The notes: generated by a model not told the origin, from the letters alone. DNA of 43,642 bases from Gemmatimonadales bacterium (GCA_039794085.1 JBDIWC010000035.1:1-43642), one strand, 5' to 3'. Counted from the first letter of the stretch, positions 6,785 to 24,267 are shown. Made by a program: numbers and translations.

Positions 6785-7927
6785 TCAGGTGGGATCGTCG
6801 GCGCGATAGAGCTGGATCTCAGGTTCGTCGTTGTCGCTCAGGCAGATCATGGCCAACCATCTCCGATTGAAGGAGATACTCCTGCCGGGTCCACGGCACG
6901 AGAGCGCGAGACGGCCAAGAAAGGTGGTGTCGGCGAAGACGTCGGCGAAAGAGGAATCGCCGGTTTCCCCCACGACCCAGAGCCGTCCGGCATGGTCAAA
7001 GGCCAGCCCATGCCGCGTGAAATGCGGGAGGACCTCACGATCGAGTGTATCCAGCCTCTCCTGCAGTCCGGGAACGGGAATCCGCTTTCCGTCCGGCCCG
7101 ACAAACCCCATACGAAGCTGCTGCCGGATGCGTCGGCGCTCCTGGTCGAGTGCTGCCCGGGTACGGCGACGCGGGGAGAGATCACGCCCGAACTCGATAT
7201 TCCCTTCCGGGCGATAGTACTGTATCCGGTACCCCACCGGGTCACCAATGGCAATCCGCCCACGTGAGACAGCATAGGCAGGAGGGGAGCTGAGGGCGGT
7301 TCCGATGACGGGGGGGGCCACCCGTTTGAGGACCGGGTCATCGTGAGGAATGACGACCCGGTCCTTCCGCCCCAGCGCGATGCGGCGGTAAACGGCCGAC
7401 TGACCGTCAGGAGTGTGTGCTGCGAAGTAATCCAGGGAGTCGCCCTGGCTCCCGAGCAGATACCACCCGAAGGGAACGGGCTCATCGTCGATGGGCCCAC
7501 CCTGGGCAGTGAAGAGTGAAGCTCTCGCCTGTTCATGGTCATCCACCAGGAGAAGTGTGTCCAGGAACACAATTCTCAGGGAGCCATCAGCGACCTCGCC
7601 GGGCCCACTACCCTTTCGGATCACCTCACGCGAAGGAACCCCCGAACGAACAACGGTGAACATGTTTCGGTCGCGGCGGTGGCGTGGATTGGCGAACAGC
7701 ACCGTCCCTCTGGATGAGACCGCGATGGGTGCGTTCGGTCTCGGCGGATCGTGCTCCAAGTCCAAGGCGAGAGGCTCTCTCTCCAGAGCAGGCATGATCG
7801 CAATCGGCTCCGAAAATGCACTTGGACCCGACCCACTCTCGCCTAGGCGTCCGGAGTCCTTCCCCGAACAGGCCGATAGGAGAAGCAGTGTTCCGATGCG
7901 GAATCTCCAAGGATTCATCACTTGCAC
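6785..7927 (-). CDS. Beta-propeller lipoprotein (6-bladed/NHL-like), cassette 1
   Basis: Lipobox LLSAC; RKGSGPGE motif; blade pattern LAFDHAGRLWV; C-terminal IQLYR. Confidence 0.75.
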   Translation of the reverse strand: MQVMNPWRFRIGTLLLLSACSGKDSGRLGESGSGPSAFSEPIAIMPALEREPLALDLEHDPPRPNAPIAVSSRGTVLFANPRHRRDRNMFTVVRSGVPSREVIRKGSGPGEVADGSLRIVFLDTLLLVDDHEQARASLFTAQGGPIDDEPVPFGWYLLGSQGDSLDYFAAHTPDGQSAVYRRIALGRKDRVVIPHDDPVLKRVAPPVIGTALSSPPAYAVSRGRIAIGDPVGYRIQYYRPEGNIEFGRDLSPRRRTRAALDQERRRIRQQLRMGFVGPDGKRIPVPGLQERLDTLDREVLPHFTRHGLAFDHAGRLWVVGETGDSSFADVFADTTFLGRLALSCRGPGRSISFNRRWLAMICLSDNDEPEIQLYRADDPT

Positions 7928-8002
7928 AGAAACCTCGCACTTGCCCGGTAACTACCCGCCATGGATGATCAGCAGTGGACGATCAGCTTGTAGCCTTGCG
8001 CG

Positions 8003-8176
8003 TCAGGGTCGCAACCATAACTGACAGGGCTGCGAGACCTGGTCTCCGTCACTCGCGCAGCACGTGCCATTGTAACACCACCAGCCCAGGCCATCCGCGT
8101 TCGCAGTCCCGGCACTTACGATGAGGAGAGCGAGAGCGAGGATGAGGTTGCGGCTGGAGCGAGACATCGTCAACAT
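8003..8176 (-). CDS. Small secreted Cys-rich peptide (57 aa), cassette 1; absent from the ORF track
   Basis: Hand-translated: MLTMSRSSRNLILALALLIVSAGTANA-DGLGWWCYNGTCCASDGDQVSQPCQLWLRP*. RBS aaagGGAGGacaaaATG; signal peptide with A-N-A cleavage site. Confidence 0.8.
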   Translation of the reverse strand: MLTMSRSSRNLILALALLIVSAGTANADGLGWWCYNGTCCASDGDQVSQPCQLWLRP

Positions 8177-8265
8177 TTTGTCCTCCCTTTAATATGGGGA
8201 TTTATGGGGATACTGGTTGTAAAACTACCTACGAAACTTACGTGCCGACACGGAGCTGCCACGCG

Positions 8266-8826
8266 CTAAAAAACTAGGCTATCAAGCAGTGTCCGGGGTC
8301 CCCAGTGGGTTATCTGCCCCACCCAGCTTCTGTGGATGATTCCGTCGTCCCGGACAATCAGGAGCGATGGGACCGCTCTGATTCCGATCGCAGTCAACGT
8401 TCCATGCTGGATGCTCAGGGGCTCTTGCAGCCGCTCACTCCAATAATCAGCGAGCTGCTCCTTGGGGTCCGAGCTGACTGCGAGGAATCTCCCCCGTGGA
8501 ACGCGGGAGAACAGATCGGTTACATAGATCTTCTGTTGGTTACAGGCAGAACAGGTGACCGAGAAAACGTAGAGCACCCAGGACTTGCCTGGCTCTCTGG
8601 TGGCTGCCCACTGGGCCATGGCAGGATCGGATGCCAAGATGGAGTCAATCCCTCTCCCGTAAAGTGTCGGTTCGGGCTGGGCAAACCCAGAGGGTAGGCT
8701 CCTGGAACGGGAAAGCAGTGTCGTTGCAGCGAAGACAAGCGCAGCCACGAGAAGCAGGAGGGCGATCACATTCTTCGCCCGTTCACTTCGGGCCCCTACG
8801 ATCCCGCTGGCTGTCCGATTTTCCAA
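8266..8826 (-). CDS. Membrane-anchored thioredoxin-like (TlpA-type) CxxC protein, cassette 1
   Basis: N-terminal TM helix; VLYVFSVTCSAC; IRAVPSLLIVRDDG (cis-Pro loop pattern); TTG start after GGAGG/AAGGA. Confidence 0.8.
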   Translation of the reverse strand: MENRTASGIVGARSERAKNVIALLLLVAALVFAATTLLSRSRSLPSGFAQPEPTLYGRGIDSILASDPAMAQWAATREPGKSWVLYVFSVTCSACNQQKIYVTDLFSRVPRGRFLAVSSDPKEQLADYWSERLQEPLSIQHGTLTAIGIRAVPSLLIVRDDGIIHRSWVGQITHWGPRTLLDSLVF

Positions 8827-8918
8827 TTCCTTGCCTCCCTTCGATTCTCACGCCGGGATGTGTAACTCCGTGGTTCGAATGATCACCCTCCATAGAATCG
8901 AGTGGCAAGATGTAGACC

Positions 8919-8957
8919 AGAGAGAGAGAGAGAGAGAGAGAGAGAAAGGGTTGTCAA
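8919..8957 (-). promoter_or_regulatory. (AG)13 tract next to a TTGACA -35 hexamer, upstream of cassette 1
   Basis: Minus strand reads TTGACA-acccttt-(CT)13-ggtctacatctt; about 90 bp upstream of the 8826 start. The -10 element is uncertain. Confidence 0.5.
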
Positions 8958-9146
8958 CAAACAACTTGCGCTCCATTGGCTCGATACAGACCGACCCTGA
9001 CAACGGCCCGCCTGTGTCATTTCAACACGTGTCAGAGTGCGTCTAGTGTGTCGAAACGACACCGCTATTCTTCGCGGCCCGATCACCTCTTCTCGGGCCC
9101 CGATTTCCGGTTGCTCCATCTCCGACGCTCTCGTCCTGGCCGGGGG

Positions 9147-9422
9147 CGCCGGGGCATCTTCCGGGAGTGAGGTGAGGGAGACGGGGACCGCTCCGCCGCC
9201 GGGGATGTGGCTCGCACCCTGTTCAAGGCCGGGACCCGGGCTGGCGCCCGGTCACTCGGCGTGGCCACCGGCGAGATCGCCGTCGGTCAGTGGGCCGACC
9301 TGATGCTGCTCGATCTCGACGCTCCCGCTCTGGCCGGGGCGACTCCTGAGACCCTCCTCCCGGCTTTCATTTTCGGCGCAGGGACGTCTGCGGTGGCGGG
9401 GACAGCGGTGGGAGGGGCGTGG
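9147..9422 (+). pseudogene. hutF: Diverged second copy of the last about 90 codons of hutF
   Basis: Translates RRGIFRE*GEGDGDRSAAGDVARTLFKAGTRAGARSLGVATGEIAVGQWADLMLLDLDAPALAGATPETLLPAFIFGAGTSAVAGTAVGGAW, collinear with 6241-6513; in-frame TGA; no start. Confidence 0.92.
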
Positions 9423-9429
9423 GACCTGT

Positions 9430-23233: not shown

Positions 23234-23356
23234 AGAGGAAGTCCCACTCCCATAGGTTAGGAGGCGAAATGCCATTGTCTACCTTTGCGTTCACTGCGGG
23301 CTATGACACGACGTATGGACGACTTCGCGACTGGCCTCCCGCACCCCCCACGGCCC

Positions 23357-23391
23357 TTGACCGGGGGTCATGCTATCTGACCCCCGGTCAA
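23357..23391 (-). terminator. Perfect 14-bp stem-loop after the cassette 3 peptide (attenuator or mRNA stabiliser)
   Basis: ttgaccgggggtca-tgctatc-tgacccccggtcaa, about 40 nt past the peptide stop; no clear U-tract. Confidence 0.6.
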
Positions 23392-23432
23392 CCATGCCGA
23401 AGCGGATTGTACCCGTCAAACCACCCCAACCC

Positions 23433-23621
23433 TCAGGGATTGAGTGGCTCGGTGCACGTGCACTTGGCGTGCCCCTGATTGTTTCCACAACTGTAGAAAC
23501 AGTCAGGGAATCCGAAGAGATCAGCCCAGTACTTCGTTCCGCTGGCCGCCGAGGTGCCAGTGTCCAGGGTCCCAAGGAATCCGATGGCCAGAAGGCCAGT
23601 CAACAGCACAATACGACGCAT
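23433..23621 (-). CDS. Small secreted four-Cys peptide (62 aa), cassette 3
   Basis: MRRIVLLTGLLAIGFLGTLDTGTSAASGTKYWADLFGFPDCFYSCGNNQGHAKCTCTEPLNP; RBS AAGGAGagcaagATG. Confidence 0.85.
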   Translation of the reverse strand: MRRIVLLTGLLAIGFLGTLDTGTSAASGTKYWADLFGFPDCFYSCGNNQGHAKCTCTEPLNP

Positions 23622-23691
23622 CTTGCTCTCCTTGCTAGGGTTCTTGCGTGCCAGTATGGCACGCAGACTGCCATCGTCTTGCGGATGACGT

Positions 23692-24144
23692 TCATGGCAC
23701 TCCACTCTCCCAAGGCGTACTGGCCAGGTCCGACCTGGTCACTGAAGTGCCATTCGCAACGAAGGCCACCGGTCGGTTTCTTTTCCCAGCTGACCCGAGG
23801 ATCAGTCGGCGAATAAGACCATCCTTCAGGACCGCATCCTCCGAAATGTGCTGCAGTTTCAGATCAAGGCGTTCTCGACTTGTGGGCGCACGGCTCAACA
23901 CCAGTTTGACCTGCGCTGGATCTACTCGGTGCCGTTGGATCCATGCTGATACAATCGGAGAGCAGGAGCCACACTCAGCGGGGTCGATTACGAGGATCGC
24001 AACTTTGTTGCCCGACGTGAGGCCGCTCAGGCGAGAGCCATCTGAGAGTGGCAAACGTTCGATGCTGCACGATTGAATTAACAAGGCCCCAAGAGTGATC
24101 GAGGCAGGTACTGTCGCATGTTGGAACGCAAATCTTGGATTCAC
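23692..24144 (-). CDS. Thioredoxin-like CxxC protein, probable lipoprotein, cassette 3
   Basis: GTG 24144 after GGAGG; hydrophobic stretch ending LLIQSC; VAILVIDPAECGSC; NRPVAFVANG. Confidence 0.65.
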   Translation of the reverse strand: MNPRFAFQHATVPASITLGALLIQSCSIERLPLSDGSRLSGLTSGNKVAILVIDPAECGSCSPIVSAWIQRHRVDPAQVKLVLSRAPTSRERLDLKLQHISEDAVLKDGLIRRLILGSAGKRNRPVAFVANGTSVTRSDLASTPWESGVP

Positions 24145-24171
24145 GGACACACCTCCACCAGTTGACGCCTC

Positions 24172-24237
24172 GACCACTACCGCGAGGAGACCACTACCGC
24201 GAGGAGACCACTACCGCGAGGAGACCACTACCGCGAG
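24172..24237. repeat. 17-bp tandem repeat, 3.9 copies (GACCACTACCGCGAGGA)
   Basis: Exact tandem units without spacers, in the 5' leader of cassette 3. Confidence 0.95.
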
Positions 24238-24238
24238 T

Positions 24239-24267
24239 AATTTACGACCAGCGCAAGCGGCTGTCAA
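24239..24267 (-). promoter_or_regulatory. Sigma70-type promoter for cassette 3
   Basis: Minus strand TTGACA-gccgcttgcgctggtcg (17 nt)-TAAATT. Confidence 0.7.

Follow-up and report, generated by a model that had tools for sequence, protein, structure and literature searches.

Sublancin, made with BdbA/B, and pediocin, made with PedC, are disulfide-bonded bacteriocins that come with a thiol oxidoreductase of their own. In methylamine and aromatic amine dehydrogenase, MauA, a small disulfide-rich chain with two conserved tryptophans and tryptophan tryptophylquinone (TTQ), is accompanied by the propeller MauB, the thioredoxin-like MauD, and MauE. Bacteroidota neighbourhoods annotated with an NVEALA peptide (PF14055), a DUF5128 (PF17170) or TolB-like (PF15869) propeller, and a TlpA-like protein hold the same trio of genes as the cassettes described here. 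Three such cassettes, each encoding a small cysteine-rich peptide, a thioredoxin-like CxxC protein and a propeller lipoprotein, lie within a 43,642-nt stretch of DNA (the window), which is contig C35 of G000, the assembly of an uncultured Gemmatimonadales bacterium (4.16 Mb, 66.8% GC, 94.7% complete). Reads of this DNA are best represented in hot-spring metagenomes of a single sample, possibly its source. The genome holds about 20 exchangeable cassettes of this kind. Two congener genomes, G001 and G002, were used for comparison.

The cassette propellers belong to the same superfamily as those of the NVEALA neighbourhoods, and the structures BVU_1028 and BF0058 match. The nearest Atlas clusters of the cassette 3 propeller are DUF5128 and TolB-like (0.95); for PF17170 itself, 23 paralogs in G000 scored above the cut-off and the four window propellers below it (best E=0.053 and 0.41). 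A sequence-only reading of the window, which preceded this analysis, had drawn an analogy to Bacteroidota. The propeller link holds, but the peptides differ: neither an NVEALA motif nor a Pfam match was found for the window peptides or the scanned genome peptides, and peptide 3 has an Atlas similarity of only 0.77 to an NVEALA cluster. The NVEALA neighbourhoods are database annotations, and the term was not found in the literature searched. The Mau genes likewise combine a propeller, a small disulfide-rich partner and a dedicated thioredoxin-like maturase in one operon; the cassettes differ in their six-bladed lipoprotein, their much smaller peptide and their polymorphic, multicopy nature. No peptide cassette has MauE, whose matches in G000 lie on C13, C1 and C63. 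As in polymorphic toxin-immunity systems, modules are exchanged at a fixed slot (one exchange, two genomes) and partner genes are in excess.

The bacteroidetocins (class IIf) combine a small four-Cys peptide with an adjacent thiol oxidoreductase required for activity, according to the available text of PMC6671954. The oxidoreductase and the even Cys count recur in the cassettes, but the bacteroidetocins have a double-glycine leader and a C39-ABC exporter, whereas the cassettes have a Sec-type N-terminus, a constant propeller lipoprotein and about 20 polymorphic copies per genome. NHLRC2 and SOQ1 share both folds with the cassettes (structural matches 6gc1, Z 14.8, and 7djl, Z 15.9). They are thioredoxin-propeller fusions. 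NHLRC2 is one conserved protein that carries a CC(I/V)NC motif, and its gene has no constant neighbours in seven bacterial genomes, as given in the available text of PMC6107167. The cassettes, in contrast, encode separate, highly divergent envelope proteins with other motifs, linked to a peptide. A search for such fusions among our matches found only generic NHL-repeat proteins, and none of 15 longer matches had a thioredoxin Pfam family, which is a weak test. Bufferins share a Sec signal, a Cys-rich core and neighbouring extracytoplasmic function (ECF) sigma factors; the words propeller and thioredoxin are absent from the main text of the bufferin paper (10.1101/2025.01.10.632315), whereas the cassettes have both genes. 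The terms propeller, thioredoxin and disulfide are also absent from the available text of PMC13056109. No description of a peptide-thioredoxin-propeller system was found in the literature searched (mostly open papers, supplements excluded). New here are the cassette insertions, the slot exchange, the three thioredoxin types, the acidic and LEP-ended peptides, the excess of lone propellers, and the CT/GA repeats near propellers.

We collected propellers with a hidden Markov model built from 55 GxGPGE motif seeds, which returned 68 in G000 at E<1e-5. Among 190 small secreted-like open reading frames (ORFs) with a ribosome-binding site, at least four Cys were present in 25 of 37 near a propeller versus 8 of 153 elsewhere. 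Thus 25 of 33 small secreted-type ORFs with at least four Cys lay within 2.5 kb of a propeller, where permutation gave 1.4 on average and never more than 9 (5000 trials). Across 59 propeller loci, which include paralogs and hence are not independent, 18 had both a peptide and a thioredoxin-like gene, 3 a peptide only, 2 a thioredoxin-like gene only, and 36 neither (Fisher 3e-10). The thioredoxin list came from one regular expression applied around all propellers; non-thioredoxin matches were removed by eye, and two single-Cys thioredoxin-like genes were added. Lone propellers far exceeded lone peptides: 43 of 68 propellers had no peptide within 2.9 kb, while only 2 of 27 peptides had no propeller.

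The linkage extends across the phylum. Of 301 genomes of the phylum, 57 proved to carry the propeller clade of cassette 3 (only six candidates scored per genome). At 29 loci chosen by propeller alone, a peptide lay within 1.5 kb on the same strand in nine and on the opposite strand in none; a wider search of the 20 peptide-negative loci added three on the same strand and two beside a neighbouring propeller, leaving 15 apparently solitary. At 17 held-out loci in other genomes, chosen by CxxC profile alone and outside the seed, a propeller was present in 17 and a same-strand peptide in 11, compared with an opposite-strand peptide call in two and a peptide in 7 of 400 background windows. Metagenome loci chosen by the generic GxGPGE motif, many of them on short contigs, gave a peptide call in only 4 of 80, one probably spurious; therefore, the motif alone does not mark the system. 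There the CxxC pattern did not discriminate (17 on the same strand, 13 on the opposite one). Peptide family, CxxC type and propeller clade were inherited jointly, such that sister propellers pair with sister peptides and sister CxxC types. The framework C-x3-C..C-x(0-1)-C occurred in 12 of 17 peptides beside the cassette 3 propeller clade versus 1 of 20 others. Thus the co-occurrence of the three gene types that the sequence-only reading had proposed to look for was found in G000 and in the phylum, and the three-gene system is real, phylum-wide and strongly supported by genomic evidence. Its mechanism, namely export, disulfide formation, binding, and a toxin or signal role of the products, is what we infer.

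The ten ORFs first placed in the three window cassettes were each also picked by an independent dipeptide-based gene caller (Table 1). Their less GC-biased codons were confirmed: propeller and CxxC genes had a GC content at third codon positions of 0.57–0.75, where the genome as a whole has a median of 0.84 and 0.76 as its 5th percentile. All three peptides have a GGAG(G)-type ribosome-binding site and a hydrophobic N-terminus (a heuristic call, made with no signal-peptide predictor), and each of the four propellers carries GxGPGE as well as a lipobox-like Cys. A CxxC gene directly upstream of the peptide, taken to be constant, is found in the three window cassettes but not genome-wide, where it lies upstream of 12 and downstream of 11 of the 23 peptides having one. 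The claim of four Cys in every peptide fell: peptide 1 is a frameshifted six-Cys peptide, whose G001 ortholog (70 aa) and C5 paralog both have six. Past the shift, the other frame carries two further Cys and a stop at 7969. Window 7372–9319, including the frameshift region, recurs unchanged in a contig of run X1, although X1 may itself be the source sample. When DNA contigs of four runs were compared with the window, those of X9 left cassettes 1 and 3 uncovered and some of X5 joined across peptide genes; this was set aside, since assembled contigs do not prove absence and the matching flanks are short. The cassette 1 propeller is sister to that of the C5 cassette in the tree, and its G001 ortholog is 80% identical; homologs of the cassette 2 peptide on C69 and in G001 retain all Cys.

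Table 1. Features of the three cassettes and their surroundings (window coordinates)
Feature	Position	Strand	Remarks
Amidohydrolase 3' end, left copy	6292..6513	+	Gene 5197-6519; 222-nt direct repeat bracketing cassette 1
Cassette 1 six-bladed propeller lipoprotein	6785..7918	-	LSAC lipobox, GSGPGE; ATG 7918, alternative GTG 7927
Cassette 1 peptide gene	8003..8176	-	Frame shift near 8020; present copy 57 aa with 4 Cys; intact ortholog six Cys
Cassette 1 CxxC protein	8266..8826	-	Membrane-anchored, TlpA/ResA-like; CSAC; Pro at usual cis-Pro position (alignment)
(AG)13 repeat upstream of cassette 1	8919..8944	.	34 nt in G001
Amidohydrolase 3' end, right copy	9201..9422	+	85% identical; Amidohydro_1 match on fragment
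CarboxypepD_reg protein	9699..11927	-	C-terminal TonB-plug-like domain; downstream of peptide 2; frequent, optional neighbour
Cassette 2 peptide	12270..12467	-	65 aa, 4 Cys, acidic
Cassette 2 CxxC lipoprotein-like protein	12548..13099	-	CVSC; no Pfam family; aligns with cassette 3 type, without usual Pro
Cassette 2 propeller lipoprotein	13126..14292	-	LSGC, GWGPGE; start uncertain, lipobox-proximal ATG at 14145
ECF-type sigma factor, divergently transcribed	14739..15350	+	(GA)15 run 15231-15260 just after region 4; 36 nt in G001
Second propeller lipoprotein of cassette 3, accessory	20891..22000	-	Other clade; DUF5128 at E=0.053 only
Cassette 3 propeller lipoprotein	22115..23233	-	LTSC, GSGPGE; predicted six-bladed NHL-type fold
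Cassette 3 peptide	23433..23621	-	62 aa, C-x3-C-x8-C-x-C, ends LNP
Cassette 3 CxxC protein	23692..24144	-	DPAECGSC; thioredoxin fold of TlpA/ResA type predicted; no Pfam family
17-nt tandem repeat, about 4 units	24172..24237	.	Between cassette 3 promoter and CxxC gene
Sigma-70-like promoter	24239..24267	-	TTGACA-17-TAAATT, 10/12 consensus match only; 3 sites found vs 2.1 expected in shuffles

The number of Cys was even in 23 of 25 peptides, and six were commoner than four genome-wide (13/25 vs 10/25). The C-terminal sequence LEP ended 9 of 25 peptides versus 1 of 3229 longer genes and was spread over several unrelated Cys frameworks; in other genomes, the cassette 3 peptide family often ends in a PPIIV-like strand. 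A DNA-level role of LEP, as a site of ribosome binding or crossover, was rejected: each of its three codons shows synonymous variation, and where a following gene was called, it is 100–330 nt off. To describe selection, we pooled the ratio of nonsynonymous to synonymous substitution rates (dN/dS) over pairs against G001 loci and L160/L161, dropping pairs with <62% identity or <60% coverage and setting the signal and mature limits at residues 25 and 27. With 12 peptide pairs, some paralogous, the ratio was 0.38 for the mature peptide and 0.37 for the signal, compared with 0.27 for CxxC genes, 0.27 for propellers and 0.19 for other genes. The peptides are therefore real genes, under relaxed yet not positive selection, which bears out the view of a polymorphic peptide family under purifying selection and tightly linked to its two partners. 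Further peptide classes exist, since larger Cys-rich secreted ORFs and helical four-Cys peptides adjoin other propellers, some with CxxC genes (C57:20677-21153; L095; L028). At the contig end of the window, a secreted-looking 149-aa ORF (42493-42942, -) lies downstream of a probably truncated ORF (42998-43633, -) whose last third is Cys/Trp-rich with TTLEP; neither has a Pfam or NCBIfam match.

Three unrelated thioredoxin-fold types occur in the cassettes: DsbA-like (PF13462/PF01323, five cassettes), TlpA-like, and a Pfam-less lipoprotein type, modelled as a TlpA/ResA fold at modest Z. The two non-DsbA types reached only 22% probability when compared by HHalign. Within the window, the fold was assigned by model for cassette 3, by a weak PF13905 match for cassette 1 (E=0.0018, with DsbE and ResA profiles below the cut-off), and by alignment only for cassette 2. 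The best match to the cassette 3 model was 3fkf (Z 8.1, rmsd 3.2, 118 aligned); matches listed were mostly thioredoxin folds, and Foldseek returned ResA at E=6.6e-4. Both Cys are invariant in 22 sequences of the cassette 3 CxxC protein, and the CxxC follows the first core strand. The redox direction is not readable from the motifs of cassettes 1 to 3 (CSAC, CVSC and CGSC). A housekeeping DsbA-VKOR pair is encoded separately on C70, and the cassette thioredoxin genes are therefore extra copies. DsbB had no match in G000.

The AlphaFold model of the cassette 3 propeller (22115-23233) has a pLDDT of 82, and it matches the NHL domain of Brat with Z 21.7 (rmsd 3.5, 267 aligned). This fold prediction covers one of the four window propellers; the other three share the GxGPGE blade by sequence. 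The propeller profile, in which the shared NHL-like blade dominates, matched 129,980 clusters, and a search of representatives was overrun by NHL repeats. We consider the propeller at 20891-22000 accessory because it belongs to another clade and is absent from the cassette 3 paralog L194. A further propeller in the window (2131-3135, +) is a secreted protein of the virginiamycin B lyase family (PF24684, E=6e-47) and is conserved in G001. Mostly beside lone propellers (C1, C13, C17, C18, C34, C44 and C79), we saw by eye small gene pairs resembling PIN, RelE or MazEF-type toxin-antitoxin modules.

Comparison with G002 showed that the cassettes are insertions into a conserved backbone. Its genes for amidohydrolase, SnoaL, aminotransferase, SNF and M28 adjoin one another; therefore, window 6520–16960 and 20106–25940 are absent there. 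At the slot of cassette 2, unrelated cassettes have been exchanged, in one exchange between two genomes: the ECF gene of G001, together with the DNA upstream of it, shares 92% identity with the window, yet the slot holds an unrelated cassette with a TlpA-like gene, a propeller of another clade and a peptide ending TLEP. Plug-like genes again follow. The ECF-type sigma factor is probably the regulator of this slot. Decay was seen as well. The peptide is broken and the propeller intact in window cassette 1 and in the cassette 3 paralog of G001 (L194); in G001, the cassette 1 CxxC gene is interrupted at a transposase gene and a contig break.

CT/GA runs of at least 16 nt number only four in G000, and all four lie within 2 kb of a propeller, a zone comprising 7.2% of the genome; homopolymers had no such bias (15/252). 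Two of the four runs differ in length in G001, although repeat lengths in assemblies are unreliable. These four cases are consistent with repeat-length switching (phase variation) of cassette expression. Around cassette 1, the end of the amidohydrolase gene occurs a third time as a 37-nt copy, 71 nt past the first (6561-6597, +), which suggests repeated insertion at this site. On C13 (74115-76638), a propeller-like gene and a toxin-antitoxin-like pair are flanked in the same pattern by two copies of the 3' end of an ABC permease gene (215 nt, 88%). That 3'-end duplication is a general mode of insertion was not upheld and stays a hint: a flanking direct repeat was found at 10 of 54 propellers versus 5 of 150 control genes, with few clear gene-end copies.

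We propose that each cassette is an exchangeable unit whose small acidic peptide would be exported via Sec. Its own thioredoxin-fold enzyme would then lock the peptide by forming two or three disulfides, and the electrons might pass to the housekeeping DsbA-VKOR pair. Dedicated folding is favoured because Cys counts are even, because three thioredoxin types are kept despite the housekeeping pair, and because bacteroidetocins need such an enzyme. The next most likely step would be binding of the peptide by its own six-bladed propeller lipoprotein, a step common to antagonism, signalling and a docked subunit. Cognate pairing is favoured by the Cys framework of the cassette 3 clade and by the pairing of sister propellers with sister peptides and sister CxxC types. 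In competition between related bacteria, the propeller would act as the immunity partner. We favour antagonism because of the slot exchange, the G002 backbone that lacks the cassettes, the surplus of propellers and the decay of peptides while propellers persist. That the cassettes form a polymorphic antagonism system, with propellers as cognate, immunity-like binders of disulfide-locked peptides, is a tentative conclusion, to which we give somewhat less than an even chance.

Several observations weigh against antagonism or against parts of the scheme. All 25 mature peptides are acidic, unlike membrane-lytic bacteriocins; no toxic domain or target is recognisable in them; and no positive selection on mature peptides was seen in the pooled counts, the mature part evolving much like the signal. 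Bacteroidetocin loci lack any immunity gene in the available text of PMC6671954. An outer-membrane exporter is not a regular part of the cassettes, only one of which has an ABC gene, and no C39 domain was found among the scanned window and cassette genes. Two peptides, on C1 and C30, have no propeller; the latter has related propellers elsewhere in G000, the former no evident partner. The CxxC motif is incomplete in three cassette thioredoxin-like proteins (C1, C3 and C27). Finally, a single clade of peptide-linked propellers was unsupported by the tree (16 changes vs 19.4 in shuffles, 30/500), a quick tree of 64 of the 68 propellers with many open forks. If peptide-linked propellers are polyphyletic, a large share of the lone ones may serve other functions, and the argument from orphan propellers loses weight.

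The more ambitious picture is of a widespread, undescribed lock-and-key code, in which more than 20 disulfide-locked peptides of one cell would be matched to some 70 NHL propellers, with entire cassettes swapped at slots under sigma-factor control, some of them switched by CT/GA slippage, and the LEP tag, common to unrelated peptides, read by one envelope factor. We regard this picture as possible but doubtful.

If the peptide is instead a signal of strain identity or a quorum-like cue, then the propeller is its receptor, lone propellers eavesdrop, and neighbouring regulators give the output. Divergent regulators do stand beside several cassettes: ECF factors (window 14739, C71 and C79), LuxR (C22 and C69) and weak AraC-like helix-turn-helix proteins (C41 and C108). 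The sensor propeller of PknD is a structural relative (Z 16.3), and acidic peptides, cognate pairing, slot swapping and lone receptors are all compatible with signalling. However, the propellers are lipoproteins without a cytoplasmic domain, and no anti-sigma factor or kinase recurs among the mapped cassettes. We consider signalling unlikely, with a small but real chance of being correct.

A third explanation, which we judge unlikely to a like degree, treats the peptide as a small variable subunit docked on the propeller, as the light chain is in amine dehydrogenase, giving a variable adhesin, decoy or capture surface. The trio resembles mauA/mauB/mauD, the propeller profile weakly matches the heavy chain of aromatic amine dehydrogenase (E=0.007), and LEP or PPIIV tails, as protein-level features, could serve as docking strands. 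Purifying selection is compatible with a structural role, and in NHLRC2 a single cleft is built jointly by a thioredoxin domain and an NHL propeller, according to the available text of PMC6107167. On the other hand, the peptides have only 35–60 residues and no conserved Trp pair, the ratio is not one to one in several cassettes, which hold additional propellers or two peptides for one propeller, and intact propellers outlast broken peptides.

A fourth possibility is that the propeller is an enzyme modifying the exported peptide, a PAL-like lyase or hydrolase in a periplasmic pathway for RiPPs, peptides made on the ribosome and modified after translation. PAL has an invariant set of metal-binding His and acts on Gly-extended substrates. 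Homology to PAL was found at the blade level (E=1.6e-13; structural match Z 15.7), and the shared C-terminal tails might be recognition motifs. In a 34-member clade, R240, S266, C315, D317, D336, C365 and W367 are invariant, of which R240, S266, D317 and D336 count in favour of an enzyme. But the same clade has no invariant His, the best column (26/34) being absent from the window protein, and these conserved residues are equally kept in propellers without peptides. Near-invariant across 29 propellers are only G84 and the GxGPGE residues, such that the Glu of GPGE is the only polar one and no polar set is common to all; most propellers have no nearby peptide, and only 3 of 25 peptides end in Gly. 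An enzymatic role, which the sequence-only reading had listed, is thus weakened, and we consider it improbable. Its statement that modifying and exporting genes are missing stood: contig C35 has no radical SAM gene (13 PF04055 genes lie elsewhere in G000, none at mapped cassettes), DUF692/MNIO (PF05114) had no match in the 94.7% of G000 that is present, and YcaO, Lan and C39 domains were absent from Pfam scans of window genes. Buffers of metal or redox state in the periplasm, which TlpA-type reductases would hold in reduced form and the propeller would handle, would fit the Sec-type signal, the Cys-rich acidic peptides and the ECF neighbours of bufferin clusters (available text of 10.1101/2025.01.10.632315), as well as two TlpA/ResA-like types of the three, usually reductases, but are very improbable given the missing MNIO gene, more than 20 divergent exchangeable versions that are hard to square with a metal ligand, DsbA-like proteins in five cassettes, and even Cys counts that suit disulfides.

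If true, the proposed scheme would explain what DUF5128-like propellers do, a very large group of envelope proteins still without an assigned role, and would expose a class of bacterial disulfide-rich peptides overlooked by enzyme-centred RiPP mining, which misses them because no modifying enzyme marks them. With more than 20 natural peptide-propeller-oxidoreductase sets in one genome, cognate specificity is testable as a matrix. If the peptides are antagonists, they would offer new stable antibacterial scaffolds from an abundant, barely cultured phylum.

Other genes in and around the insertions were noted. The CarboxypepD_reg/TonB-plug-like family comprises the window gene and 25 more in G000. 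Its members share a Cys pair and end in W-T-R, and tandem copies often follow cassettes; many of the proteins are only 250–310 aa long and therefore have no barrel. As a core cassette part it was rejected, since among 16 non-seed members just 4 have a propeller nearby and 2 a peptide. A Fic-domain gene (15541-16731, -) shares the inserted region of cassettes 1 and 2 and is absent at this place in G001. Upstream of cassette 3, two short ORFs (24423-25333, +) without a Pfam match resemble pieces of one broken lipoprotein gene. Window 27574-33840 holds an Ig-like (Big_2) lipoprotein-like gene and an ECF sigma/Ser-Thr kinase-TPR pair, where G002 has a single propeller-like lipoprotein gene between two M28 peptidases.

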